64,000 bases of DNA from Sumerlaeia bacterium (GCA_040219255.1 JAVJSW010000068.1:160001-224000), one strand, 5' to 3'; shown: positions 18,928-32,182, counted from the first letter of the stretch. Numbers and translations are program-made. Notes: generated by a model not told the origin, from the sequence alone.

Positions 18928-19545
18928 GTGAGCCAACTGCCACTCGGCCATTCCCCGCCACCCGAGCCGGACCCGTCCATCAGTCTGGAAGTCTTCACCG
19001 CTTTCCAGAACGGCGACGGAGCGGCGATGCAGGTCATCGTCGAGCGCTATCACCACCGCCTCATCGGCTTTGTCCGCATGATCGTGTGGCAACGCGAACT
19101 GGCTGAAGAACTCGCTCAGGAGGTCTTCCTCGAAGCTTACCGGCGGCGCCGGGAAATCACTCGCCCCGAATCGCTCAAGTCCTGGCTCTTCACCGTGGCG
19201 CGCCGCAAAGCCGCCAAGGAACTGGCCAGAAAGCGATACCGGGTGGAAACCTTCCCCGGCGACGAAATGATCCAGGATCTCGCGCCCGCGGTCCATCCCT
19301 CCCAGGCGGAGGGCTTCCAGTTGGAAGAAACGGCCCAAGTGCTGCATGAAATTCTGGACGAGATCAGCCCCGGCGATCGCGAACTGATCACCCTCCGCTT
19401 TTTTGGCGGACTCAGTTATCAGGAAGTCGCCGACGCCATGAACCTTTCCATTGGATCGGTGGGGGTGAAACTCAACCGGGCTCTCTCGCGCCTGAAAAAA
19501 CGGCTGGAGATTCGAGGACTCACCATGGAGGACCTGATGCCATGA
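18928..19545 (+). CDS. ECF RNA polymerase sigma factor
   Basis: Region 2 AEELAQEVFLEAY..KSWLFTVARR; region 4 LRFFGGLSYQEVADAMNLSIGSVGVKLNRA. Confidence 0.92.
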   Translation: MSQLPLGHSPPPEPDPSISLEVFTAFQNGDGAAMQVIVERYHHRLIGFVRMIVWQRELAEELAQEVFLEAYRRRREITRPESLKSWLFTVARRKAAKELARKRYRVETFPGDEMIQDLAPAVHPSQAEGFQLEETAQVLHEILDEISPGDRELITLRFFGGLSYQEVADAMNLSIGSVGVKLNRALSRLKKRLEIRGLTMEDLMP

Positions 19546-20366
19546 GCAGCAACGAAACCCATAAAGATCTGGAACAAACACTGTCCTCCTTCTCCGGCGA
19601 ATGGTCCCGCGCCCATCGCTCGGCGGACTTCCTGAAGTCTTTCGAGGAGAGACTGGCTGACGAAGTGGCCGCCGACAGCGGTCAGCCGGCCCGCATCGTG
19701 GAGCTTCCCGTGGCGTCCGAGCCGCGCCGCCGCCCCGCCCTGCTGTGGCTCGCCGCCGCCGCCGCCCTGCTCCTCATCGTCCTCGGTTCGATGACCGCCC
19801 ATCATCAGTTGTCCAGTCCCGCCGGTATGGTTCGCTACGCGAGCGCGGGTCTGCGCGAAAGCATCGGGTCGGAAATCCGCCCCGGGCAGAGCTTGGCCTT
19901 CGCGGCCGGTGAGCAGGGGTACGTGACGCTCGATGGTGAGCGCGTGAACGTCTTCTTGCACGAGAATTCCCGGCTCGACATCAAAGCGCCGGACCAGGTG
20001 TTTCTCGCCGCGGGCGAAGCCTGGTTCGCCGTCGAGCCCAATTCCGGGCCCTTCCAGATCGGCACCCCGAGCGGCCGGGTCGAAGTTTTAGGAACGAATT
20101 TTGGCGTCCAATTGTTGGAGTCCGGCATGGAGGTCAGCGTTTCCGACGGACGCGTGCGCGTGACTTCGAAAAGTGAAGATTTTGCTGTCATTGAACGGGG
20201 CACTCGTGCCATGGTATCTGATGAGGGAGGAAGACCGGTGCTGAGCGCCGCGGGGCAAGATGCGACCCCGCAATGGGCTCAGGCACTTCTGGCGGACGCA
20301 CAAGCTTACTTCGCCGCCCGGTACTTCCCCTCTGGTCAGCCACCTCGCACGGACGCCCGGGAATGA
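19542..20366 (+). CDS. FecR-domain anti-sigma factor
   Basis: Single TM (WLAAAAALLLIVL); FecR motifs LAAGEAWFAV, VEVLGTNFGV, VSVSDGRVRV; ATGA overlap with sigma gene. Confidence 0.85.
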   Translation: MSSNETHKDLEQTLSSFSGEWSRAHRSADFLKSFEERLADEVAADSGQPARIVELPVASEPRRRPALLWLAAAAALLLIVLGSMTAHHQLSSPAGMVRYASAGLRESIGSEIRPGQSLAFAAGEQGYVTLDGERVNVFLHENSRLDIKAPDQVFLAAGEAWFAVEPNSGPFQIGTPSGRVEVLGTNFGVQLLESGMEVSVSDGRVRVTSKSEDFAVIERGTRAMVSDEGGRPVLSAAGQDATPQWAQALLADAQAYFAARYFPSGQPPRTDARE

Positions 20367-21055
20367 TTGCGGACAAAAAACGATACCAAAGCAAAGCGGT
20401 TACCCTCGTGGAACTCCTTATCGTGGTGGCCATCGTTGCGATTCTTGCGGCGATCGCCGTGCCCAACTTCCTGGAAGCGCAGACCCGGGCGAAAGTCTCG
20501 GCCGCGCAGTCCAACCTGCGTGTCCTCAGGGGCGGCCTCGAAACGTACGCCGTCGACTATGGCCGCTATCCGGCCACACGGCCCATGATTCCCAGCGACC
20601 CGCTGGGCCTCCTGGCGAATCATCAACTCAAAGGCCTGACAACCCCCATCGCCTACCTGGGCCCCAGCGCCTTCCGCGATCCCTTTGGACTCGTTCAGGC
20701 CCGCGCGATCCTGCCCTCCGCCTCCTTCCTCAACGGAAACCATGGCGATTTCCCCACCTTGCCGCATCCGAACCCGGAACGCTCGGTCCTGTATTTCCAC
20801 TACCCGACGCTCTCCGCCCGGTTCCAGAATCCGGACCTGTGGATGTCCGGAGCCGCCGCCATCAGCGTGGGACCCGATCAGCAAGACTCGCTCGGTGCCT
20901 ACCGGCCCTATCCCGCCAAGGTTTTCCAGACCTATTACGGCAACAGCGCCATCGCTCATCCACTGGACACGGTCTACGATCCGACGAATGGCACCGTGAG
21001 CGAAGGCGACATCGGAATTTACACGGGGACGGCTTCGCGTTTCGCGGAGCCCTGA
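20363..21055 (+). CDS. Prepilin-type (class III signal) pilin/pseudopilin, YDPTNG family
   Basis: KA|VTLVELLIVVAIVAILAAIAVPNFLEAQTRAKVS; LTTPIAY, DPF, SVGPD, YDPTNGTVSEGDI; ATGA overlap with FecR gene. Confidence 0.85.
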   Translation: MIADKKRYQSKAVTLVELLIVVAIVAILAAIAVPNFLEAQTRAKVSAAQSNLRVLRGGLETYAVDYGRYPATRPMIPSDPLGLLANHQLKGLTTPIAYLGPSAFRDPFGLVQARAILPSASFLNGNHGDFPTLPHPNPERSVLYFHYPTLSARFQNPDLWMSGAAAISVGPDQQDSLGAYRPYPAKVFQTYYGNSAIAHPLDTVYDPTNGTVSEGDIGIYTGTASRFAEP

Positions 21056-21060
21056 TCGCC

Positions 21061-23688
21061 ATGGGATTTCAGAACCGTTTTCCATCCTCCCGCTCCAAAG
21101 CGGTTTCCCCCGTCGCGGCAAGCCTGCTGGCGGCCGTTCTCGCCGCCGCTCCCGCGGATACCGGCACCACACCGCAGCATAGCGTCGCCGCCGATTTCAA
21201 TGGCGACGGACGCGCCGACATCGCCACCGCCAATTTCTTCGACGACACCGTCGCGATTCATCTGCAGGATGGCGCCGGGAACTTCAACCTCGCCCAGTCG
21301 ATCCCTGTGGGTCTCAATACCAACCCCCTGACCGACAGCGACGGCCCCCGCTTTCTGGCCCTTGAAGATTACAACCGCGACGGCGCCCCCGATCTGACGG
21401 TGCTGTGTTCAGGCAACGTGGCCTTCGGTTCGCGCCCCAGTCTGCAAACCCTGATCAACCTGGGCGACGGGACCTTCGCCCCTCTGCCCGCCGCCGCCAC
21501 CAGCGCCCCCGGTTCCGACGCCCGCCCCGTCCAGTTCGCCCTCGGCCACATGGACGGTGACCACTATCTCGACGCGGTGATCGCGAACCTCGACGTGGCG
21601 GAAATCGCCATCCTGTCGGGCGACGGCACGGGCGCTTTCGATGGCCTGACCTCGATCGTCATGGCGGCGGAGGTGATCGACCTCGCCGTCGTGGACCTGC
21701 AAGGCGATGGCCTCGACGACATCGTCGCCATCGAAGCCCCCGGCACCGTCGTCGCGATCGTTCAGAGCGCCGCCGGAGTGCTCGCAACTCCCCAAACGCT
21801 CGCCGGGCCGATGGCGGGCGCCGATTTGCAGGCGCTGGCCCTTGACGACTTCGACGGCGACGGCTTCCTGGACATCGCCCTGGCCGACCGCTCCGGAGCC
21901 GCTTGGCTGATATCCGGACCCATGAGCCCCAATGAAAACCTGACCCCCATCGCCCTGTCCTCTCCGTCTTTGGTGGGACCGGCCGATATCGCTTCCGTTC
22001 ATTGGGACGGCGATTTCGTGGCCGATGTGGCCCTGGCGGACCTGGACGGTGATCAGGTCGTGATCGTGACCTCCAAAGAGGGCGAAATCACCGCCGCCAC
22101 CGCCCAGGCTCCGCGCCGGCTCTTTTCCGCCGACATCGATGGCGACGGTAACGCCGACCTCGTCACGGCGAACGAGGGCGACCGGCCCGATCAGTCCGGC
22201 ACGGACCCAAACAACGAGGACGTGTCGATCGTCCTCAGCCCGGCGACCGTGCCCCCGGCGGACGGCTTCCCGCAGATCCTGAGCGACCGCGCCATCCCCG
22301 CCAACCTGACGCTCCGCGCGCGGTCGGTCTCCGCCAGTTCCCCGGATTTCGCCTGGGTTCTGACCACCGACGGCCAAACGGTCAAGGCCCGCACGGGCGA
22401 GGGCGTCCTGGTGGCGGCGGCTCAGTTGCCGGCGCAGGCGGGCGCACTGGCGATGGCCTATGAAGACGACGCCAGCTCCGCCTCCCAGGGACTGATGATC
22501 CACCGCTTCGACGCCGAGATTTCCGGCTTCACCTTCAATCTGGAAAATCCCGCCGTGATCGAGGATTTCGCCTCCTCGGCCACCTTCGCCTACGATCCCG
22601 GCGCCTTGGGATTCGCCGGCCTGGCCTGGGATCGCGAGGAAGGCGAACTCTTCGTCTCCGCCCCCGGGAAGGGCGAAATCGTCCGCTTGTCGGAAGCGGG
22701 CACCGTCCTGGGCACCTATCCGGTCACCCCTACGCCGGGGCAGATGACATGGGACCCAGGGCGCGACCTTCTCGTGGTGACCGCCCCGGGGCGCAGCGAC
22801 TTCCGCTTCTACAGCCGCGAAGGCGTGCTTCAGACATCGCCTCCCGCGGCTCCGGTGGATTTGGCGGAGCGAAGCGTTCTTTTCGCCCGCGACGGTCTGG
22901 TGGCGCTCACATACAACGACAACAACGAATTCCTGGCGGTGGGCGGGAACGGATTCGTGCTCAAGGTGGCTCGCAATGGCAGCATCCGGGAGGGCGGCGT
23001 CTTCGGTCCGCTGTCCGACCCGCTGGCGCTGGCTCACGATCCGCTGCTCGGCAAGGTGATCGTGCTCGGCAATTCGGGCGGCTGGGTGGAACTTCTGCCG
23101 GACGACGACTCTGGTTTCCTGACGGTCAGCGAGATGTCGATTTGGCGCATCTGGCAGATCAATCCGGAATTCTCGCCCACCGGACTGACTCTCGCACAGG
23201 ACGGAGAGAACGTCCTGATTTCGGATCGCGACGAAGCGCGACTGGCCCGCTTCGACCGCGCCGATGGGCAGTTCAACGGCTTCCAGCCGGTCTCGCTCGT
23301 CGATCCCGGCCAGATGCCTTACCAGAGCGTCACCAAGAAGAGCCAGGGCAACGGCGTCTACCTGCGCGACCGCCTCAGTCTGCGTGATGGCGAAACGGGC
23401 GAACGCGTGCCCCTGCCTTGGACAAAGCACGGCGATCTCTCGGTCAAGGCCAACGGCGAGGTGGTTCTTTCTCTGCCCAATCCCTCCTCCGTGGGTACGC
23501 TCGACCCAGTCACGAGAACGGAGTCGGTGATCGGTCTCGGTCCGTCCGATTCCACAACCGGCCTGGCCATCGACGAAGCGAGCGGTGAACTGCACCGGCT
23601 CAACACGCGGGCCGGGGAGTTGTCGCTGCAAACCTATCAATTCCAGGGGGCCGCGTCTGTTTCGCCGGCATGGCTGGAGTATCGCTGA
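21061..23688 (+). CDS. Exported FG-GAP/VCBS beta-propeller protein with a second propeller and a C-terminal W-x-x-Y tag
   Basis: Seven DxxGDG-type Ca-binding blades (DFNGDGRAD, DYNRDGAPD, HMDGDHYLD, DLQGDGLDD, DFDGDGFLD, HWDGDFVAD, DIDGDGNAD); ends AASVSPAWLEYR; ATG 5 nt after pilin stop. Confidence 0.8.
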   Translation: MGFQNRFPSSRSKAVSPVAASLLAAVLAAAPADTGTTPQHSVAADFNGDGRADIATANFFDDTVAIHLQDGAGNFNLAQSIPVGLNTNPLTDSDGPRFLALEDYNRDGAPDLTVLCSGNVAFGSRPSLQTLINLGDGTFAPLPAAATSAPGSDARPVQFALGHMDGDHYLDAVIANLDVAEIAILSGDGTGAFDGLTSIVMAAEVIDLAVVDLQGDGLDDIVAIEAPGTVVAIVQSAAGVLATPQTLAGPMAGADLQALALDDFDGDGFLDIALADRSGAAWLISGPMSPNENLTPIALSSPSLVGPADIASVHWDGDFVADVALADLDGDQVVIVTSKEGEITAATAQAPRRLFSADIDGDGNADLVTANEGDRPDQSGTDPNNEDVSIVLSPATVPPADGFPQILSDRAIPANLTLRARSVSASSPDFAWVLTTDGQTVKARTGEGVLVAAAQLPAQAGALAMAYEDDASSASQGLMIHRFDAEISGFTFNLENPAVIEDFASSATFAYDPGALGFAGLAWDREEGELFVSAPGKGEIVRLSEAGTVLGTYPVTPTPGQMTWDPGRDLLVVTAPGRSDFRFYSREGVLQTSPPAAPVDLAERSVLFARDGLVALTYNDNNEFLAVGGNGFVLKVARNGSIREGGVFGPLSDPLALAHDPLLGKVIVLGNSGGWVELLPDDDSGFLTVSEMSIWRIWQINPEFSPTGLTLAQDGENVLISDRDEARLARFDRADGQFNGFQPVSLVDPGQMPYQSVTKKSQGNGVYLRDRLSLRDGETGERVPLPWTKHGDLSVKANGEVVLSLPNPSSVGTLDPVTRTESVIGLGPSDSTTGLAIDEASGELHRLNTRAGELSLQTYQFQGAASVSPAWLEYR

Positions 23689-23779
23689 GTCCCTCGCCCT
23701 TCCCCTTGCGTCATAGGCCTGCATAGAGTTGCAATATGCCCCGTCAGATTTCACTCCAGGCGGGAGTTTTGCCCCATCC

Positions 23780-26671
23780 ATGCTGCGTTTCCAAGATCCC
23801 CCGGCTCAGACCCAACGGGACTTTCTCAAGGCCCTGCGCGATTCGTTCAATGGCGCCCTGCGCGATGAAGCCTGGGCCCGAGGGCTGTACGCCACGGATG
23901 CGTCCATGTACCAGCAAACCCCCGCGGCGGTGCTGGCTCCCCAATCGGTGAAAGACATTCAGAAGGCCCTTGCGCTCTGCTCGGACCACCACATGCCAAT
24001 CCTGCCCCGCGGCGCCGGGACGAGCCTCGCCGGCCAGTGCACCATCGACGGCGGCCTTGTCATCGATGTGTCCCAGCATTTCACCAAAATCGGCCAGGTG
24101 AACGAAGCCGAGGGCTGGGTCATCGTGGAACCGGGTGTGGTGCGCGACACGCTGAACGCCCACCTGGCGCCGAAGGGTGTCATGTTCGCCCCGGAAACCA
24201 GCACCAGCAACCGCGCCAACGTCGGCGGCATGATTGGCAACAACAGCAGCGGCATGATGAGCATCCGCTATGGCAAGACCATCGACCACGTGCTGGGCGC
24301 GTGGGCGGTGCTGGCCGATGGGCGCGAGATTTACTTCGGCCGCCGCGAAGAGATGGATGCCGACGGCTGCGCGCTGCTCGACGCGCTCCTGGAGATCGTG
24401 AACCGCAACCGGGCCCTGATCGAGGAACGTTTCCCCAAGACGATGCGCCGCGCCGGCGGCTACATGCTCGACGAGTTCCTGGGCGATGACCCGAATCTGG
24501 CGAAAATCCTCTGCGCGAGCGAAGGCACGCTGGCTTTCCTGACCCGGGCGAAGCTCAAACTCGAGCCCAAGCTGAAGCACGTCGCCGCCGTGGCCGTGCA
24601 CTTCAAGAGCGTGGTGAACAGCCTGCGCGCCATGCCCGACATCGCCGCCCACAACCCGTTGTCGGCCGAGTTGATGGACGAAGAGCTGCTGACCATGTGC
24701 GCCGACAACGAAACCACCAAGGCCATGATGTGGTGGATGCACGGCCATCCAGAGGCCGTGATCGCCGTGGAGATGGACGGCGACACGCAGGAAGCCGCCG
24801 AGGCGCGCATCCGCGATCTGGTGGCGGACCTGAAGGCCAAGGGCTGGGGTTATGAATACGCCGAGCTGATGAAGCCCGAGGAGCGTTATCAGATCATCGA
24901 GGTCCGCAAACACGGCCTCGGCATCATGCTCAAAATGATCGGCGATCCCAAGCCCATCGCCTTTATCGAGGACGCGGCGATTCCGCTGGAGACGCTGGCG
25001 GAGTATGTGGAGCGCGTCTTCGCCATCGCGGCGAAGGAGAAAGTGCGGGTCATTTCCTATGGCCACGCCAGCGTCGGCGTGCTGCACCTGCGGCCGATCC
25101 TGAACCTGAAGACCCGCGAGGGGCGCGATACGCTGGCGCGGATTTCCGGGAAGGTCATGCCCCTGGTGCGCGAGTACGGCGGGTCCTGGGCCAGCGAACA
25201 CGGCGACGGCATCGCCCGCGGCGCCCAAAACCACGACTTCTGGGGCGAGGACATGATCGCCGTCTTCCGCGAGGTGAAGGCCCTGTTCGATCCCAAGGGC
25301 CTCTTCAACCCGGGAAAAATCTTCGACACGCCGCCCGTCAGCGGCCCCCTGCGCTATACCGCCGAGTACAAGCAGAGCGACTACAAGAGCGCCTACGCCT
25401 TTGCCGCCGAGGGTGGATTCCAGGGCGCTGTGGAAATGTGTAACGGCGTCGGGGCCTGTCGTAAAGTGGGCAGTGGCACGATGTGCCCGTCCTACATGGC
25501 GACGCGCGAGGAGAAGGATTCGACCCGCGGGCGGGCGAACGCGTTGCGCCTCGCGATGAGCGGCCAGCTCGGCGAGGACGCCATGACCGGCGACGGGCTC
25601 AAGGAAGTGCTCGACCTTTGCCTGGAATGCAAAGCCTGCAAGACCGAATGCCCCAGCAACGTGGACATGGCGAAGATGAAGAGCGAATTCCTGCACGCCT
25701 TCAACACGCGCCACGGGGCGACGCTGCGGGACAAGGCGCTTGGCTTCTCGCCCCACACGGCGCGGCTGAACAGCGGCTGGCGCGCGCGCTTCGTGAACCC
25801 GATCCTGCGTAACCCGCTCACACGCCGCGCCTTCGCCAAGATGCTCGGCGTGGCGGTGGAGCGCCCCCTGCCACCGTACGCCACCGAAACCCTGCAAACG
25901 TGGTTCGACAAGCGGCCCAAGCCCAAGCTGCCCAAGGACGCGCCCGAGGTCATTCTCTTCGACGACACCTACGCCTCGTGCCACGAGACGGAAATTGGCC
26001 AATGGGCCGTGCGGGTGCTCGAGCACCTGGGCTTCCGCGTATTCCTGGCGCGGGCCGGCTGTTGCCAGCGCCCCCTGATGAGCAAGGGGTTCCTGGACGA
26101 AGCCAAAGCCGGCGGCGGCAAGACCATCGCCAACCTGGACAAATACGCCAAGGCCGGGATGAAAATCCTGACGCTGGAACCGAGCTGCGGCAGCGCCCTG
26201 AAGGACGACCTGAAGGACCTTGTCGAGGACAAAGGCGCCGCCAAACGCGTCTCCGCCGCGACCTTCCCCATCGAGCAGTTCATCGAAGAAGAAGCGGTGG
26301 CCGGGCGGATCAAGATCGAGCTGCCGAAAGCCGCCAAGGACGGCTATCTGCTCCACGGCCACTGCCACCAGAAGGCGCTCTTCGGCACCGGGCCCCTCAA
26401 GCGCATCATGGCTGGCGCGGGCGCCGCGATGGAGGAAGTGGACTCGGGCTGCTGCGGCATGGCGGGCAGCTTTGGCTATGAAGAAGAGCACTACGAAATC
26501 TCGCAGCAAATCGGCGAGTCCCGCCTCTTCCCCGCCGTCCGCGCGGCCGCGAAGAAGGAACTGGTGGCCAACGGATTCAGCTGCCGCCATCAGGTCGCCG
26601 ACGCGACCGGCCGCCGCCCGGTGCACTTCATTGAAGCCCTGGGCCGGGCGATGGGGCTGAAGGAGTCGTAG
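23780..26671 (+). CDS. FAD-binding and Fe-S-binding oxidoreductase (YdiJ / D-lactate dehydrogenase-like)
   Basis: PRGAGTSLAGQ, GGMIGNNSSG, SEHGDG, CNGVGAC..MCPSY, CLECKACKTECP, CCG domains. Confidence 0.9.
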   Translation: MLRFQDPPAQTQRDFLKALRDSFNGALRDEAWARGLYATDASMYQQTPAAVLAPQSVKDIQKALALCSDHHMPILPRGAGTSLAGQCTIDGGLVIDVSQHFTKIGQVNEAEGWVIVEPGVVRDTLNAHLAPKGVMFAPETSTSNRANVGGMIGNNSSGMMSIRYGKTIDHVLGAWAVLADGREIYFGRREEMDADGCALLDALLEIVNRNRALIEERFPKTMRRAGGYMLDEFLGDDPNLAKILCASEGTLAFLTRAKLKLEPKLKHVAAVAVHFKSVVNSLRAMPDIAAHNPLSAELMDEELLTMCADNETTKAMMWWMHGHPEAVIAVEMDGDTQEAAEARIRDLVADLKAKGWGYEYAELMKPEERYQIIEVRKHGLGIMLKMIGDPKPIAFIEDAAIPLETLAEYVERVFAIAAKEKVRVISYGHASVGVLHLRPILNLKTREGRDTLARISGKVMPLVREYGGSWASEHGDGIARGAQNHDFWGEDMIAVFREVKALFDPKGLFNPGKIFDTPPVSGPLRYTAEYKQSDYKSAYAFAAEGGFQGAVEMCNGVGACRKVGSGTMCPSYMATREEKDSTRGRANALRLAMSGQLGEDAMTGDGLKEVLDLCLECKACKTECPSNVDMAKMKSEFLHAFNTRHGATLRDKALGFSPHTARLNSGWRARFVNPILRNPLTRRAFAKMLGVAVERPLPPYATETLQTWFDKRPKPKLPKDAPEVILFDDTYASCHETEIGQWAVRVLEHLGFRVFLARAGCCQRPLMSKGFLDEAKAGGGKTIANLDKYAKAGMKILTLEPSCGSALKDDLKDLVEDKGAAKRVSAATFPIEQFIEEEAVAGRIKIELPKAAKDGYLLHGHCHQKALFGTGPLKRIMAGAGAAMEEVDSGCCGMAGSFGYEEEHYEISQQIGESRLFPAVRAAAKKELVANGFSCRHQVADATGRRPVHFIEALGRAMGLKES

Positions 26672-26705
26672 GGGCGGCGCTCCTGGATCGGCACAGGCCC
26701 CAAGT

Positions 26706-26729
26706 GTAGCACAGGCACTCTTGCCTGTG
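26706..26729 (+). repeat. GTAG-type REP-like hairpin
   Basis: GTAG followed by perfect 8-bp stem CACAGGCA-ctct-TGCCTGTG in a convergent intergenic gap. Confidence 0.5.
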
Positions 26730-26746
26730 GCAAGCAGCCGAGCCGC

Positions 26747-28408
26747 TTACTCGATCCCCATCACCTCGATTTCGTAACCCGATTGCGTTTCCTCTTCGCG
26801 GTAGGGTTCCAGCAACTCCTTGCGCCATTCGGTGAGGCGTTGGCGGGCGAAGTCCGAGGCAAGGGCATCCTCCCACTCTTCAAAAGGGGGAAGCTCGCCC
26901 GGCCGGTGATCCAGCAGCAGGTAAACCGTGTAGCGGTCGCGCCCGATCAGCGAATCGCTGATTTCGCCGAGTTTGGCGTTTGGCAGATCGAGCGCCACGG
27001 CCAGCCCCGCAGCGTCGGCTGGTGACCAGTCGAGGAGCCGCTGCACCGTGACGCCGGGCACGGTGGCGTATTCGGCCAGGGCCTCGCCCGCGTTGGCGGG
27101 GTTTTCCCGGGCGGCCCAATGATCGCGGATTTCGCCGATCGTGCGCCACGCTAGGCGCCTTTGTACATGCTGCTCGCGGGGCGTGGCGGCCGGATCTTGG
27201 AGGTGCTGCGCGTGGACCGCGATCAGCTTCACCTCGTCCGGGTCGCGGTACAGATCGCCGTTGGCTTCATAGTAGGCCCGCAACTCCTCGCGGGTGGGCG
27301 GGTTCGCTTCGTGGCGGGCCACAAGGTGCTGGTGGAGGGTGGCCTGGGCCAGAAGGCCTTGCGAGAGAAACCGGTATTCGGGGCTGTCGCGGATGGCGGG
27401 GGCGGCGTCGCTGCTCAGAATCAGGAGCTGCTCCTGGGCCAAATCGATCATGCGCCCGGCAAAGCGCGGGTCGGCGCGGTCGCCGAAAAGCCCCGTGTTC
27501 ATCGCGATGACCTCGTCGTAGCTGTAGGTCTCGCCGTCGAAGCGCAGGACCGGGTCTCCCCCGGCGGGCGCTGGACCTTGGCCATCGTAAAGGACGGCGA
27601 TGTCGTGGTGGGCGCGCCGCGAGTCGAAGAACTCCCGGCGGGCTTTCTGATACGCTTCATGGCCGATTTCGCGGGCGAGACGTTTTTCGACGACCCGCAG
27701 CGGCAACGTGCCCGAGGAGCCTTTATCCGCCAGCCGCCCAAAGACCAGCCCGGCGTCCCGCTCGACCGGGCCGAAGTACGCCCCGCCCGGGTCTTGGGCG
27801 AAGAAGGCTTCGAACAGATCGGGCGCCATGCGGCCGCGCTCGATGCGGGCGAAGGCGCCATCGTAGTCCTGGCCCACGGACGCGTAGAATTCGCGGGCAA
27901 CCTCGGCGAAGGGCTCGCCCGCATCGAGCCGTTGCTGAATGGCTTCGGCCACGGTAGTCTGCTCCGGGCCCGGCTCGATCAGAATGCGGGCGCCTTCGAC
28001 CCAATCGTCCGTGGGGAACTCGGCGGCGCGGGCCTCATAGGCCTCCATCAGAGTGTCGAGATCGGGCCACGTCTCGCCCTGCAAATTGAAGTCCCACAGA
28101 CGAGTGACCAGGTACGCGTCGAGATCGAAGGGCAGTGTGGCCGTCGATACGCCCTCCTGCAGCAAGGCCTGGAAGGCGCGGTCGCTAAGGACCATGTCTT
28201 CGGCGAAAGCGAGGATATCCCCCTCATCGTTCAGCCCAACCTGGTATCCCGTGATGGGATCGAGGCGTTGAAAGGCGGTGTAGCCGATGCGGGCGAACTC
28301 TCGCCGGTCCCATTGGTTGGGGAGATGGGGGAGGGCGGCGGGAGCGGCCGATGGCATGAGCAAACCGAGTGCAAGAAGGACTGTCGCAAGGTGTCGCGTA
28401 AGAGACAT
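26747..28408 (-). CDS. Exported PpiC/rotamase-like foldase (SurA/PrsA/PpiD-like, two degenerate domains)
   Basis: Signal peptide; ARILI..RLDAGEPFAEVAREF..RGRMAPDLFEAFF; PTREELRAYYEANGDLY..LGEISDS..PFEE. Confidence 0.65.
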   Translation of the reverse strand: MSLTRHLATVLLALGLLMPSAAPAALPHLPNQWDRREFARIGYTAFQRLDPITGYQVGLNDEGDILAFAEDMVLSDRAFQALLQEGVSTATLPFDLDAYLVTRLWDFNLQGETWPDLDTLMEAYEARAAEFPTDDWVEGARILIEPGPEQTTVAEAIQQRLDAGEPFAEVAREFYASVGQDYDGAFARIERGRMAPDLFEAFFAQDPGGAYFGPVERDAGLVFGRLADKGSSGTLPLRVVEKRLAREIGHEAYQKARREFFDSRRAHHDIAVLYDGQGPAPAGGDPVLRFDGETYSYDEVIAMNTGLFGDRADPRFAGRMIDLAQEQLLILSSDAAPAIRDSPEYRFLSQGLLAQATLHQHLVARHEANPPTREELRAYYEANGDLYRDPDEVKLIAVHAQHLQDPAATPREQHVQRRLAWRTIGEIRDHWAARENPANAGEALAEYATVPGVTVQRLLDWSPADAAGLAVALDLPNAKLGEISDSLIGRDRYTVYLLLDHRPGELPPFEEWEDALASDFARQRLTEWRKELLEPYREEETQSGYEIEVMGIE

Positions 28409-28432
28409 GGGAGAATGGCCTGGGTCGGGGGT

Positions 28433-28475
28433 AAAAAAAAGGAAAGGCAGAAAGCCTCCATAGAGACTCTCTGCC
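28433..28475 (-). terminator. Intrinsic terminator of the 28515..29909 gene
   Basis: Minus-strand hairpin GGCAGAGAGTCTC..GAGGCTTTCTGCC (with GU pairs) followed by TTTCC and T8. Confidence 0.7.
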
Positions 28476-28514
28476 GATCCTACAGGTTGGGTTTTTCGCG
28501 TTCGAGCGAGGTGA

Positions 28515-29909
28515 TTACTGGTAGAGATCCCAGGTATTGGCCGAAGCGGGTTCGATGCGGTTGGTGGCGGTCACCGTCACGTCGTCCCAAAGGCTGCGCG
28601 AGGCGTTGAACTTGTGGGTGGCGACGGCGAGTTGATCGCCAAGGTTCAGACCCGCGTCGTAAGCACTATCGACCGCGAAAACGTAAGCGGATGCCGTGGA
28701 ATTCGGGTTGAGCAGGTGAGACGTCGACTGCCAGGAAACGCCGCCGTCGGTGCTCTGGAAGTAGGCCAGGCGGACTTCGCCGCCACCCTTGCCAGCGAAG
28801 GACATCACGAAGTTTTCCATGCCGGCTTCGAAGCCGTCGGAACGCAGTGTGTAGCGGTTCGAGAAGTCGCTGGCGGCGAAGGTAATTGCCAGAGCACTCC
28901 CCACGCTGTCGAAGGTATCGACGGTTTCTTCTTCCACAGTCACATTGCTGAGATCAGCACCCGAAGTGCCCAGGTCGTTCGTGTTGAGGACGTGCCAGCC
29001 GTTCGGAACGAGGATGTCTTCCGAGCTGATAGTCTGGGTGCTGAAGCCATCAGCAAAGGAGCTGGCGAACACGGTTTCGACACCAGCGGTGTTGTCGATG
29101 GTGTAGAAAACCGTGCTAGCACCGGTGGCCGTGGAATCGTCCTCGGCGGTCGCAGTGAAAGTCGTCACACCATCGGGGAAGGCGGTGGTATCGAAGTCGA
29201 ACGTGAAGCCGTCGCCCGGCGTCGTATCGGTCGCTTCCGGCGTTCCGTCGTTGTCGGCATCGAATTCGACCTGCGTGTAGGTGCCGGTGCCACCGGAAAC
29301 GACGGCGGTGACGCTGGTGCCGCCATCGATCCAGAAGCCGTTCGGGGGGTCGAGGCGAACGGTGATCGGAACGATCAAGACTTCCTCAAGAACGAACTCG
29401 TCGAAGAGTGCCTCAAAGCTGCCACCGGCGCTGTTGGAGCTGATTTCGATGTCCACATCGGCGCCAGCCGCAGCCGACACCACAGCGGTTTCCGCCGCGG
29501 TCCAGCCGCTGGTCGGGGTCACTGGGGCGACGGTTTCGGAGAGAACAACCTGCTCAACGTTGCCGTCGATGGTGGCGGTCACGGTCAAGCCACGAAGGGG
29601 ATCGTTGCCATTCTCGCCGTTCTTGTAGAAGAACGTGAGCTTGTAGTTGCTCGCCGAGGGCACGGTGGCAGGATAGAGAGACCCGACGGCGAAGCTGAAT
29701 CCGCCGTCGAGGAGCCGCAGAGAACCACCGGCGCTTCCGGGAGCATTGTCGGCGCTTGAGTTGATCGCTTCGCCGCCGAAGGGGCCACCGTGACGATAGC
29801 CGAAGTCGCCCGTCGGGGAGGTGCTGAAGTCTTCGATCAGGGTCGTCTGGGCCATGGCGGAACCAGCGGCCAATGCGAGGACACCGGCTAAAATTGCTGT
29901 CTTTTTCAT
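28515..29909 (-). CDS. Exported protein: jelly-roll/CBM-like domains flanking an Ig-like domain, C-terminal W-x-x-Y tag
   Basis: Signal peptide MKKTAILAGVLALAAGSAMA|Q; Ig-like FDFDTTAFPDGVTTFTATAED; ends EPASANTWDLYQ; AGGAG RBS. Confidence 0.7.
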   Translation of the reverse strand: MKKTAILAGVLALAAGSAMAQTTLIEDFSTSPTGDFGYRHGGPFGGEAINSSADNAPGSAGGSLRLLDGGFSFAVGSLYPATVPSASNYKLTFFYKNGENGNDPLRGLTVTATIDGNVEQVVLSETVAPVTPTSGWTAAETAVVSAAAGADVDIEISSNSAGGSFEALFDEFVLEEVLIVPITVRLDPPNGFWIDGGTSVTAVVSGGTGTYTQVEFDADNDGTPEATDTTPGDGFTFDFDTTAFPDGVTTFTATAEDDSTATGASTVFYTIDNTAGVETVFASSFADGFSTQTISSEDILVPNGWHVLNTNDLGTSGADLSNVTVEEETVDTFDSVGSALAITFAASDFSNRYTLRSDGFEAGMENFVMSFAGKGGGEVRLAYFQSTDGGVSWQSTSHLLNPNSTASAYVFAVDSAYDAGLNLGDQLAVATHKFNASRSLWDDVTVTATNRIEPASANTWDLYQ

Positions 29910-30211
29910 AGAGATTCTCCTTTTGCATCGGGGGGAACAGGGGGGTGGATTGGAGGCGGAAAGGGCGCGCTGAGAAACCGTTTGATAGGATCGGGTCTGT
30001 CGGGAGAGGCCGGAGGAACCGTGTCAACGGAGCAGGAACGCGCTCAATTACGCCGAATTGCTAAGAACCTATTGAAACTAATTGCGGGCAAGTGTCAACC
30101 CCGGATATGCAATTCGATGCAGGCAAAACGAATCTCCTGGACCGGTCAACAAATGCGTCTGCAAAAAAAGGAGTTACAAAGCCGCTCTGTAAAGCATCCG
30201 GCGATATTGCT

Positions 30212-32182
30212 ATGACACGCCCCTTCCGCTTCCTTCCCGGCGCCTTTCGCGCGATTTTTTTTCTGATTTCTGGAACCGCCCTCTTCGCCGCCCCCGAACC
30301 GGGCCATTCCCCCCCGGCCCGCGCCGCGCTGCCCGCCGAAGCCACCCTCGCCGAAGCCGCGCCTCCAGACCCGGCCCTCAAGGGCGCTATCGCCAACTCC
30401 GCCGTCCGGCCCGTCATCGACCCGCGCTACATCGTCTTCGGCTATCATCCGTCCTATCGCGACGGCATCGAGTTCCACTATCGCTGGCACGCGCTGACCC
30501 ATATCGGTTACGCCTTCGTGGACTTCACCGATTCCGGCGCCCTGCAGACGGCAAGCTGGGACGGCCGGCCGAGCGCTTTCAAGGCGGGCGGTTCCGCCGA
30601 GGCCAACGGCGTGAAGGTCCACATGGTCCTGCGCAACGACAACTTTCTCGAACCGGTCCTCGACACGGTGATGCGCAGTCCCGCCCTGCGCCAGACCGTC
30701 ATCGCCAATGTGATCGCGGCGATCTCGGCGGATTCCTACGTGCAGGGCATCTCCCTCGATCTGGAGTTCGACTGGGAAGCGGAAACGCGCGATGGCATCA
30801 CGCTGTTCGTGCGCGATCTGCGGGCGGCGCTGGACGCCTGGACGGCGGCGGACCCGGCCAACCGCCCCCGCATGGAACTGAACTATTACATGAGCCCGAC
30901 GTTCAGTTCACGGCGCTACGACATCCCCGGCCTGATCGGGCATCTGGATCATGTGATCCTGAGCTGCTATCCCTGGGCCGGGGGCTTCAGCACCCGCGTC
31001 GGCGCCGTTGCCGACCGGCGCTTTTTCGTGCGTGAAGGCAACGATTACATCAATGCCGGGGTGCCGCATCCCAAGCTGGTGCTGGCGCTGCCGCTCTACG
31101 GCTTTCGCTGGGAGACGGACTCGCCCGTCTATGGCGCCACCATCCCGGACCGGGACGCCCCCGCCAACGGCGCTGTCGGGTTCAAGGACGCTCTCTATGC
31201 GACAACGCTGGGTCTGAGCTTCGGCGGGCCGCTCACGCGCAACTTCGAGGAAGCTCCGGAAGTCGCCTGGTACACCTACTCCATCGGCGGCGTCCCCCGA
31301 GTGGTGACCTTCGACGACGACCGGGCGCTGGAGTCGAAAATCGCTCTGGCCCGCGATTGGGAGGATCCGGACGGTTCCAACGGCGGCCGGCCGGTGGGCG
31401 GCGTGGCCTTCTGGGAAATGTACTGGATCGCCACCGAGGACTCCTACGATCCCATTGGCCAGCAAGTGGTCGAACGCACCCGAACCTATCCCCATGTTTA
31501 TCAGTTCTGTGCGGAGATACTGTCTCCCCCCGGCACGACCAAGTTCCCCATCGCCCGCTTCGAAGGCAACAATCCGGACTTCCGCTGGCGCGATCCGGAC
31601 GAATCACCCGACACCCGCGGCACGGCGCCGAACGCGACGAGCCGATCCCTCGCCCCCGCGCCCGGCGCCCCGGGGGCTCCGCCGGAAAGCACCATCGGCA
31701 TGGCCGTGGACTACGCGTTCGCGGGGTTCGATGGGGGCCGGGCCTTCTTCCGCCATGAAATCCTGGCGGACGACGGCGACACCGGCGTCCTGGACCGCTG
31801 GGCGGCGGCGGCCCTGGTCACGGCCGATACCCAGTTCGAAGTCTTTGTCCACGCCAGCCTGACCGCCGTGGCGGACACGGTGCGGTTTGTCGTGATGGAT
31901 GACGACCTGCAGCTGGAAATGTCCCCGCCGCTGCGCCTCCAGGCCGGATGGCAGGTTCTGTCTTGGGACATGGCGGAGCGGGTCCTCCCCTACAACACCA
32001 GCGAACCGCTCTATCGCGACGGCGACGGCGCGATCGACACGCGTGGCGGCCGCGACATCGCCTTCCTCGGCTTCCTGATCGAACGCAACACGATGGGCTC
32101 GCCCGCGCGCGTGGTCTTCGACGAACTGGTCTACACGGCGTCGGACGGCGCGCAGGACTCGGGGGCCTGGATGCTGTATTGA
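30212..32182 (+). CDS. Exported GH18-family glycoside hydrolase with C-terminal jelly-roll domain and W-x-x-Y tag
   Basis: [49 protein letters not shown]; ends [10 protein letters not shown]. Confidence 0.8.

Follow-up and report, generated by a model that had tools for sequence, protein, structure and literature searches.

Cargo of type IX secretion systems (T9SS) of Bacteroidota and their relatives carries its C-terminal domain (CTD), a folded beta-sandwich of ~70–100 aa, at the extreme C-terminus of Sec-exported and otherwise unrelated large hydrolases and adhesins, of which there are many per genome. The tripartite sorting signals (LPXTG/sortase, PEP-CTERM/exosortase, GlyGly-CTERM/rhombosortase, and MYXO-CTERM/myxosortase) are also C-terminal and are found in many copies on unrelated carriers with signal peptides; they combine a short signature, in which few residues are near-invariant, with a hydrophobic transmembrane segment and an Arg/Lys cluster. 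Dockerins, the partners of cohesins, are C-terminal non-catalytic modules of diverse secreted enzymes and have a Ca-binding duplicated fold of ~60–70 aa (DxNxDG-type). The peroxisomal targeting signal PTS1 is a C-terminal SKL that is read by the tetratricopeptide repeat (TPR) receptor Pex5. The beta-signal of outer-membrane proteins (OMPs) consists of alternating hydrophobic residues, ends exactly at an aromatic residue, and is found on beta-barrel proteins, and the C-terminal YxF peptides of OMPs activate DegS. Short terminal peptides of Sec-exported proteins can also be recognized by pilins: such a peptide of TcpF is reported to bind the minor pilin TcpB (PMC9565799), and that of CofJ to dock on CofB for export (PMC6048534). 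In this report, we describe a C-terminal tail of ~9 residues, built around W-x-x-Y, that is found on three exported proteins encoded in a 64,000-nucleotide stretch of DNA (the window; C68:160001-224000 of genome G000) from a Sumerlaeia bacterium, and on many other exported proteins of the same phylum.

Translation of the three open reading frames (ORFs) in the window gives the ends AWLEYR for an FG-GAP protein, TWDLYQ for a 464-aa protein, and AWMLY for a hydrolase of glycoside hydrolase family 18 (GH18). The C-terminal ends of the FG-GAP ORF (21061-23688, +) and of the 464-aa ORF (28515-29909, –) are GAASVSPAWLEYR and EPASANTWDLYQ, respectively, each followed directly by the stop codon. An earlier note on this DNA had proposed a sorting signal of the form A-x(3-6)-W-x-x-Y-(x), and the three ORFs end exactly as it described; the pattern is better written as [ST]-[SGA]-V-x-[DEGN]-W-x-[LMVI]-[YF], where F can stand for Y and up to two residues may follow. 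Also as described there, all three proteins have signal peptides (Sec-type by our home-made predictor) and unrelated domains. The tail is joined to its carriers by small-residue linkers, as that note had it, or by Pro/Thr linkers. No cytoplasmic enzyme of the window was said there to end in this way, and only 3 of the 46 genes called in the window score above 1.5 with a position-specific scoring matrix (PSSM) for the tail (scores in Table 1). From the frequency of internal W..Y, the number of proteins expected to end with W..Y.?$ in the window is 0.04, and the probability of at least three is ~1e-5. No Pfam or NCBIfam family was found for the 464-aa protein, which is Ig/jelly-roll-like by weak ESM-Atlas leads only. 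In the homologous-protein search, which returned 1–2 relatives per query, its sole relative was P0002 (34% identity), which ends with DVQEWDLY.

The frequency of the tail was determined in the genome that contains the window (5.35 Mb, 83 contigs, 63.6% GC, 92% complete), using 3939 genes that cover 85% of the sequence. These genes were called with our own crude codon-bias caller, and the signal-peptide predictor is likewise a simple and permissive home-made rule. The pattern W..Y.?$ ends 42 of the 3939 proteins, compared with 3.4 expected (~12-fold), and W..[YF].?$ ends 62, compared with ~8.6 expected. The enrichment is positional. With 0, 1, and 2 trailing residues, W..Y was found in 27, 15, and 2 proteins (1.7 expected each), and W..F in 11, 9, and 3 proteins (2.6 expected each); background is reached at two or more trailing residues. 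The terminal patterns W.Y, W...Y, Y..Y, F..F, and L..Y are all at the background level in this genome. The PSSM, which spans positions –8 to +3 and was used with a cutoff of at least 6, selected 66 C-termini compared with 1.6 expected (~40-fold), including variants that end with W-x-[LVI]-[ILM]-[ED]. The tag frequency is ~1.7% of proteins, or about one in sixty. The aromatic residue is the last one in 36 of these 66 tails; the other 30 carry one or two more residues, which are mostly acidic or Q (E in 13, Q in 4, ED in 2, and D in 2). Two other proteins of this genome, C82:11881-12813 and C30:7237-9111, contain a high-scoring motif (…SGWMLY and …SVEAWPVF) 13 residues before the stop; these internal motifs could represent a frameshift, read-through of a former stop codon, or a tolerated extension.

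The proteins that carry the tail are predominantly exported. When any in-frame start is allowed, a signal peptide was predicted for 35 of the 42 proteins that end with W..Y.?$ and for 1511 of the 3897 others (odds ratio 7.9, p = 5e-9); when the prediction is restricted to the called start, the numbers are 24 of 42 and 844 of 3897 (odds ratio 4.8, p = 7e-7). This comparison had been named in advance as a test of the sorting-signal proposal, and the result favors it. A signal peptide was also predicted for 53 of the 62 proteins ending with W..[YF].?$ and for 61 of the 66 selected by the PSSM. The tagged proteins are large, with a median length of 570 aa compared with 342 aa for the 597 untagged signal-peptide proteins. 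They account for 16 of the 42 signal-peptide proteins of 800–1200 aa and for 24 of the 122 of 500–800 aa, and roughly one third of the large exported proteins are tagged.

The carriers are otherwise unrelated. The 62 proteins ending with W..[YF].?$ fall into 45 BLAST clusters, 41 of which are singletons. A Pfam scan of 39 tagged proteins (E-value limit of 0.01 in part and of 1e-4 in the rest) assigned a family to 26 and none to 13. The enzymes identified are GH18, GH66, GH13 with Glucodextran_C, GH3, S8 subtilase, S13, Amidase_3, and an Exo_endo_phos nuclease with LTD; the other domains include FG-GAP, CotH with LTD, GSDH with PKD, SdrD_B, SGL, Golvesin_C, PPC, CBM96, and cytochrome c. This content is typical of extracellular or surface proteins. 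P, T, S, G, and A are overrepresented in the sequence that precedes the tail (0.46 compared with 0.39, p = 3e-4), and in C8:23650-25626 the tail follows a Pro/Thr linker of ~30 residues. Homologues of the GH18 hydrolase, found in 15 of 21 genomes of relatives, are ~1100 aa long and have extra or different C-terminal regions. Seven of these loci were inspected, of which two run past the stored sequence; the five complete ends, which are related tails, are NIPLDGFAIR, VPVEVDAWVVD, VPVELDYFSVD, SVTDFMLLDEY, and SGLDGLMFY, the last of these after a Pro/Ser/Thr linker.

Orthologues with identities of 16–45% keep the tail invariant. For the FG-GAP cargo, seven orthologues (16–28% identity) were aligned over their last 300 aa; only three columns are invariant, and one of them is the tail W. 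In a second cargo family (six sequences, 28–45% identity), the V and the W of the tail are invariant. Further orthologues end with ANVSDWNVFN, SVQDWSMFD, SVSDWNLY, TVVDWSVF, and AVTGWSLY. The tail is under strong purifying selection, which acts at the protein level.

The spread of the tail was determined across 75 genomes of the phylum that contains the window, with families labeled f1–f16. Counts of a narrow DNA pattern, V-x-x-W-x-[LVMFI]-[YF]-stop, were compared with those of its reversed form, and the family sums were added by hand; a first pattern, W..[YF]-stop, was dropped for its poor signal to noise (153 compared with ~115–130). The narrow pattern is enriched in f15 (388 compared with 82, including 66 and 6 in G060 and 57 and 9 in G064), f2 (153 and 56), f1 (133 and 67), f14 (78 and 31), and f13 (41 and 8), and more weakly in f12 (51 and 31). 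It is also enriched in the single genomes G012 (19 and 3), G037 (12 and 4), and G025, which belongs to another class (24 and 7). No enrichment was found in f16 (48 and 63), f10 (10 and 14), the six f11 genomes other than G037 (12 and 23), f7, or f5. Full-motif ORF ends were found five times in 363 kb of G057 and zero times in 320 kb of G069 (f16), where there are two chance W..[YF] ends only. In G025, whose GC content is 36–42% compared with 64% in G000, ten ORFs around matches of the DNA pattern end with [ST]-x-V-x-[DN]-W-x-[LIVM]-Y; the 5' end was captured for five of them, four of which begin with a Sec signal peptide. Three tandem signal-peptide genes in this genome (C28:1478-6687; 308–497 aa) end with TPVLDWALY, TPITDWMIY, and TPVLDWALY. 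Outside the phylum, the pattern is not enriched over 41 genomes of a phylum with a record titled Armatimonadota (130 compared with 216) or in four genomes of other phyla (0 and 2, 6 and 7, 0 and 1, and 6 and 13). The suggestion that the tail is lineage-specific therefore holds for these samples, and only as far as they reach. The tail is found in the C-terminal position only, nearly always on signal-peptide proteins, and is modular and spread across the phylum.

A C-terminal domain of ~120 aa, designated CTD120, is common to seven tagged paralogues of G000 (e.g., C76:2543-3157) and has the signature VELxxFxA...W.T..E.DN.GF.VYR...YxLEDVDxxGxxTxHGP. No Pfam or NCBIfam match was found in the scans run, and a search of PDB sequences gave chance matches only, the best of which was an ATP synthase subunit (E = 0.036). 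A profile search of 1.84 billion proteins gave 24,928 representatives with E<=1e-3; at E<=1e-10 the number is 6,516. The distribution of CTD120 is clearly wider than the phylum. The ends of the best 150 representatives were classified by regular expression, with about two false positives in the tail class. In ~91 of the 150, CTD120 is followed by a spacer of 14–15 residues and then [ST][SG]V.[DE]W.[LM][YF]. Seven end with a T9SS-CTD-like sequence (...GIYFYRL...KKMVLIK), four with a dockerin-like sequence (DVNxDG), three with a hydrophobic helix and basic residues, four with ...NGRTSR, and three stop right after HGP; the remaining 36 end otherwise. After CTD120, the tail sits in the same slot as known sorting signals, and CTD120 is a useful marker for the analysis of this choice of anchor. 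Structural neighbors of CTD120 in the ESM Atlas belong to clusters of which 94–100% of the members bear Por_Secre_tail and/or FlgD_ig (TM-score by query of 0.67–0.79), a predicted likeness that we treat as a lead only. Within the phylum, CTD120 was found in 22 of the 75 genomes, which are confined to the order of the window and G030. It was not detected in the tag-rich families f12–f15 or in G025, and therefore the tail and the domain are independent.

None of the described systems accommodates the tail, in agreement with the earlier note, which had set it apart from established tags: there is no transmembrane helix, no basic tail, and no match to Por_Secre_tail. The tail resembles the T9SS CTD in its position, in the kind and number of its carriers, in cargo domains (GSDH, PKD, LTD, S8, and GH families), and in the slot after CTD120. 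However, a tail of ~9 residues is far too short for a T9SS-type domain. Por_Secre_tail (PF18962; TIGR04183) was found in 0 of the 39 tagged proteins scanned with Pfam, in 0 of 8 scanned with NCBIfam at E<=1, and in 2 of the 75 genomes. PorV (NF033710) has 0 matches in G000; SprA (TIGR04189) also has 0, but its model gave no match in the control genomes. The proposed analogy, by which the tail takes the place of the T9SS CTD, is supported indirectly: the slot after CTD120 is shared, and T9SS markers are mostly not found in the phylum.

The tail is similar to the tripartite signals in position, copy number, signature length, near-invariant residues, signal peptides, and variety of carriers, but it lacks the hydrophobic segment and the Arg/Lys cluster. 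Exosortase (PF09721) has no matches in G000 or in the 24 other genomes of its order. It was found in 9 of the 75 genomes, namely all seven of f11 and G057 and G059 (2 of the 13 of f15). Exosortase is thus present throughout f11, where G037 alone shows enrichment of the tail pattern, and in f11 and f15 the two tag systems may be partly complementary. In G000, one protein has a PEP-CTERM-like end by regular expression, with no family; there are no LPXTG-like ends; and the 20 proteins with a C-terminal helix and basic residues share no motif with the tail set. Like a dockerin, the tail would dock non-covalently to a receptor, and dockerin-like ends occupy the same slot in the CTD120 family. However, the Pfam scans of the 39 tagged proteins gave no dockerin match, the tail is much shorter than that fold, and we know of no cohesin-like receptor for it. 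PTS1 is comparable in being very short, confined to a free C-terminus, and portable among unrelated proteins, but it belongs to another compartment and another domain of life. The OMP beta-signal and the DegS-activating YxF peptides also place an aromatic residue at or beside the C-terminus of exported proteins. In the tail, however, position –4 is W and position –2 is hydrophobic, 30 of the 66 examples have trailing residues, and the carriers are soluble multidomain proteins with enzyme and adhesin domains. C-terminal ligands of PDZ domains have a hydrophobic terminal residue in a fixed register, which differs from the one or two extra residues found here, and substrates of type I secretion have no N-terminal signal peptide, whereas 61 of the 66 carriers have one of the Sec type. 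The peptides of TcpF and CofJ are reported to be N-terminal and to belong to one cargo each; the present signal is C-terminal and found on ~66 proteins, and its link to pilins is statistically weak.

Haft's seven criteria for prokaryotic C-terminal sorting signals (10.1101/2023.06.07.544157) provide a further comparison. The tail agrees with four of them (numbers 1, 2, 6, and 7, and partly with number 3), since it lies near the C-terminus, occurs many times per genome, and is found with signal peptides on unrelated carriers. The criteria also ask for a co-occurring cognate processing or sorting enzyme, and none fits among the six candidate families or counts that were profiled.

We conclude that the tail is, with little doubt, a selected and functional C-terminal tag of exported proteins. 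It is most likely a new short sorting or docking signal for surface and secreted proteins, and from the sequence evidence we assign a probability of roughly 55% to a function in sorting to, or retention at, the cell surface or the exterior. In the proposed mechanism, a portable tag of ~9 residues with its free carboxylate would be joined by a flexible linker to a Sec-exported protein. After export, a candidate envelope receptor would read the tag and either direct the protein across the outer membrane or hold it at the cell surface, and the tag would thereby play the role that T9SS CTDs, PEP-CTERM-type anchors, or dockerins have elsewhere. The loose register and the acidic extra residues suggest recognition of an extended strand through its V/W/aromatic face beside a negative charge, which may be supplied by the terminal carboxylate or by a trailing Glu or Asp. 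More tentatively, the tail may be the address label of an undescribed envelope sorting system and be sufficient to move large folded proteins across or onto the outer membrane. Such a label, comparable in logic to PTS1, could be recognized by an as yet unannotated receptor or translocon family, in a phylum without T9SS and mostly without exosortase, and would be portable and predictable from the sequence; this is possible rather than probable.

A number of results weigh against a sorting function. Every established small sorting signal has a transmembrane helix and a basic cluster, and the tail has neither; among the candidates profiled, no receptor or processing enzyme was found. Apart from prepilin-like genes, no gene family is repeatedly found beside tagged genes. 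The terminal register varies by 0–2 extra residues, which is unusual for recognition anchored by a carboxylate, and 5 of the 66 tagged proteins have no detectable signal peptide. The spacing between CTD120 and the tail is nearly fixed at 14–15 aa. The phyletic map was made with a narrow DNA pattern, for which not enriched differs from absent, and the tag-poor, exosortase-bearing genome G041 (f11) still has a GSDH homologue that ends with ANHWRQYR.

The possible readers of the tail were sought among the secretion and protease genes of G000, and each leads to a different explanation. If the tail docks to a pseudopilin of a type II secretion system (T2SS) or of a type IV filament, or to another T2SS component, it would be a signal for secretin-dependent export, by analogy with TcpF and CofJ; we regard this as unlikely. 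G000 encodes 8 secretins, ~18 T2SS-E-family ATPase matches, and 49 prepilin-like proteins (~200–240 aa), and secretins are found in all 75 genomes, in 2 to 14 copies. Prepilin-like genes are the commonest neighbors of tagged genes, near which kinases, T2SS-E ATPases, and extracytoplasmic function (ECF) sigma factors also recur. In 7 of 7 loci from six genomes of two families, genes for an anti-sigma, a prepilin-like protein, and the tailed FG-GAP cargo follow one another in this order, and 5 of the 31 genes directly downstream of prepilin-like genes are tagged, compared with 1.7% for the genome (p = 1.6e-4). Relative to exported proteins, however, of which 10% are tagged, this proportion is not enriched (p = 0.23), and only 6 of 62 tagged genes have a pilin neighbor at +/-1. 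Secretin number runs opposite to tag density (2–4 in tag-rich f15 and 7–13 in tag-poor f16). G000 has a single clear T2SS cluster, which comprises G, L-, M-, and C-like proteins (the last without PDZ), D, E, F, and a protein with TPR and a transmembrane segment. This cluster is sporadic: the GspL-like protein occurs in 4 and the TPR protein in 2 of the 75 genomes, and both were rejected as receptors. A complex prediction for residues 26–219 of the prepilin-like protein and the last 300 aa of the FG-GAP cargo scored 0.01 and gave no answer. The docking to pilins or TPR proteins that the earlier note had suggested was not supported. A quality-control or processing tag is about equally improbable. 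Here a PDZ-type protease or chaperone of the periplasm (HtrA/DegS-like, Ctp/Prc-like, or SurA-like) would be the reader and would sense, trim, or degrade exported proteins as they accumulate there, much as the YxF peptides of OMPs activate DegS. The tail is suitably aromatic, hydrophobic, and C-terminal, and the proteases of G000 include three of the HtrA type (one of them having four PDZ domains), one S41 Ctp, and two M28 peptidases with PDZ; one of the M28 genes is two genes from a tagged gene, and a gene for a peptidyl-prolyl isomerase (PPIase) with two parvulin domains adjoins a tagged gene in the window. The one or two extra acidic or polar residues of 30 of the 66 tails, however, are a misfit to the hydrophobic p0 pocket of PDZ. 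The distributions do not follow tag density either: the M28 peptidase with PDZ was not found in tag-rich f12–f15 but was found in tag-poor f10, and the full-length four-PDZ HtrA was found in tag-poor G041 and G069 but not in tag-rich G060, G064, or G025. It is difficult to see why a third of the large exoproteins would keep a degradation tag invariant, and the slot shared with T9SS, anchor, and dockerin ends would be left unexplained. Peptidase_C25 (the gingipain/PorU family) is not discriminating because it is present in 5 of the 5 phylum genomes tested, with 9 matches in G025.

Other explanations dispense with a protein reader. W and Y/F are typical carbohydrate-stacking residues, many of the carriers are polysaccharide-active enzymes, and no protein receptor emerged from the candidates profiled, all of which would suit a minimal aromatic anchor to a surface glycan, lipopolysaccharide, the S-layer, or an insoluble substrate, with no dedicated protein receptor. 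We consider this slightly less probable than the two proposals above, since the invariant V..W spacing and the acidic position before W look like a strand recognized by a protein, a strict distance of 0–2 residues from the C-terminus is not expected of a sticky patch, and many carriers already have domains like carbohydrate-binding modules. The tail could also be intramolecular, the last strand or latch of the final domain of the carrier itself, recurring through convergent or shared needs of folding. In the CTD120 subfamily, where the spacing is nearly fixed, it may pack on the domain, and in several carriers a jelly-roll-type last strand (F/W-x-D-D/N-V) lies only 6–10 residues before the tail. 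Even so, this is quite improbable. The tail is not bound to one preceding fold, in contrast to the integral strand that had been named as grounds for abandoning the proposal: the 45 unrelated clusters have different last domains, the tail occurs after long Pro/Thr linkers, and GH18 homologues of quite different C-terminal architecture retain it. Moreover, 3 of the 150 best CTD120 members stop after the domain without a tail, and f12–f15 are tag-rich without detected CTD120. Lastly, the gene caller and signal-peptide predictor are crude, which leaves room for chance, a gene-calling artifact, or a DNA element (terminator or repeat) that overlaps gene ends, but the controls refute this explanation. 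In addition to the ~12-fold and ~40-fold enrichments, the tail is found at the end of 1.61% of called ORFs (62 of 3845), and the proportion is 0.09% (19 of 20155) for uncalled ORFs that have 100 codons or more. The DNA 3' of the stop codon shows no conservation, TAA, TGA, and TAG all serve as stops (26, 23, and 13 times), the synonymous codons within the tail vary, and the motif persists between genomes with a GC content of 38% and 64%. A signal for sorting or docking at the envelope thus remains the preferred explanation.

The features of the window and the Peptidase_C25 matches in G000 are collected in Table 1. The prepilin-like gene is separated from the FG-GAP cargo gene by 6 nt, and the set of ECF sigma factor, anti-sigma, prepilin-like, and FG-GAP genes (18928-23688) resembles a minor-pilin and PilY1-like adhesin pair under sigma control. 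The double-parvulin PPIase gene is directly downstream of the tailed gene at 28515-29909, which is a single adjacency. Rfam and tRNA scans of the window gave no matches. Elsewhere in G000, the type IV filament machinery is very expanded. The four-PDZ HtrA-type protease is encoded at C42:167662-169764, and the M28 peptidases with a C-terminal PDZ at C59:64369-66039 and C43:37478-40384, one of them with PD40 and PA in addition. The four Peptidase_C25 matches are in large ORFs of a genome without a detected T9SS, and one of these proteins has the near-tail end ALPDWDSWE. Three small tandem paralogues of 78–108 aa at C35:38105-39128 (–), with the ends TTTVYGQ, TINVYGR, and TTIAYGN, are upstream of a tagged cytochrome-c-like gene (C35:40940-42106).

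Table 1. Tailed genes, their tails, and context features in the window (positions counted from its first nucleotide), and Peptidase_C25 matches elsewhere in G000 (contig coordinates).
Feature	Coordinates	Strand	Remarks
Exported FG-GAP/beta-propeller protein gene, 875 aa, tailed	21061..23688	+	FG-GAP_3 E = 2.7e-22 (Pfam); signal peptide; tail PSSM 9.6
C-terminal tail ASVSPAWLEYR (W-x-x-Y and one residue)	23653..23685	+	Stop codon 23686-23688
Exported 464-aa protein gene, tailed	28515..29909	-	Signal peptide MKKTAILAGVLALAAGSAMA; tail PSSM 12.5
C-terminal tail PASANTWDLYQ	28518..28550	-	Stop codon 28515-28517
Exported GH18 glycoside hydrolase gene, 656 aa, with C-terminal non-catalytic region and tail	30212..32182	+	Glyco_hydro_18 E = 7.8e-20; signal peptide; tail PSSM 13.7
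GH18 C-terminal tail	32147..32179	+	Stop codon 32180-32182
ECF sigma factor	18928-19545	+	Pfam; context only, membership in the tag system not implied
FecR-type anti-sigma	19542-20366	+	Pfam; context only
Prepilin-like T2SS-G-type protein, directly upstream of the FG-GAP cargo gene	20363-21055	+	Pfam; context only
Exported PPIase with a pair of parvulin-type domains (SurA/PrsA-like)	26747..28408	-	Rotamase_2 E = 6.4e-13, Rotamase E = 1.6e-4; context only
Peptidase_C25 match, G000	C39:176651-177736
Peptidase_C25 match, G000	C8:86421-87536
Peptidase_C25 match, G000	C46:46515-47594
Peptidase_C25 match, G000	C37:70632-71729

No description of such a tail was found in the literature on Sumerlaeota secretion, C-terminal sorting signals, T2SS motifs, and PDZ, a search that did not cover supplements and subscription journals; in PMC8092238, the word "C-terminal" occurs 0 times. 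If the proposed function is correct, the tail would be the shortest sorting signal known for exported bacterial proteins and the first that lacks both a membrane anchor and a folded domain, and a portable tag of nine residues would be a convenient handle for display or secretion. The finding would then point to a receptor or translocon that is not yet annotated. Since families within one class differ sharply in tag density, phylogenetic profiling should be able to reveal this machinery. With the tail as a guide, the surface and secreted proteome of an uncultured and little-known phylum that degrades polysaccharides could also be predicted from sequence.

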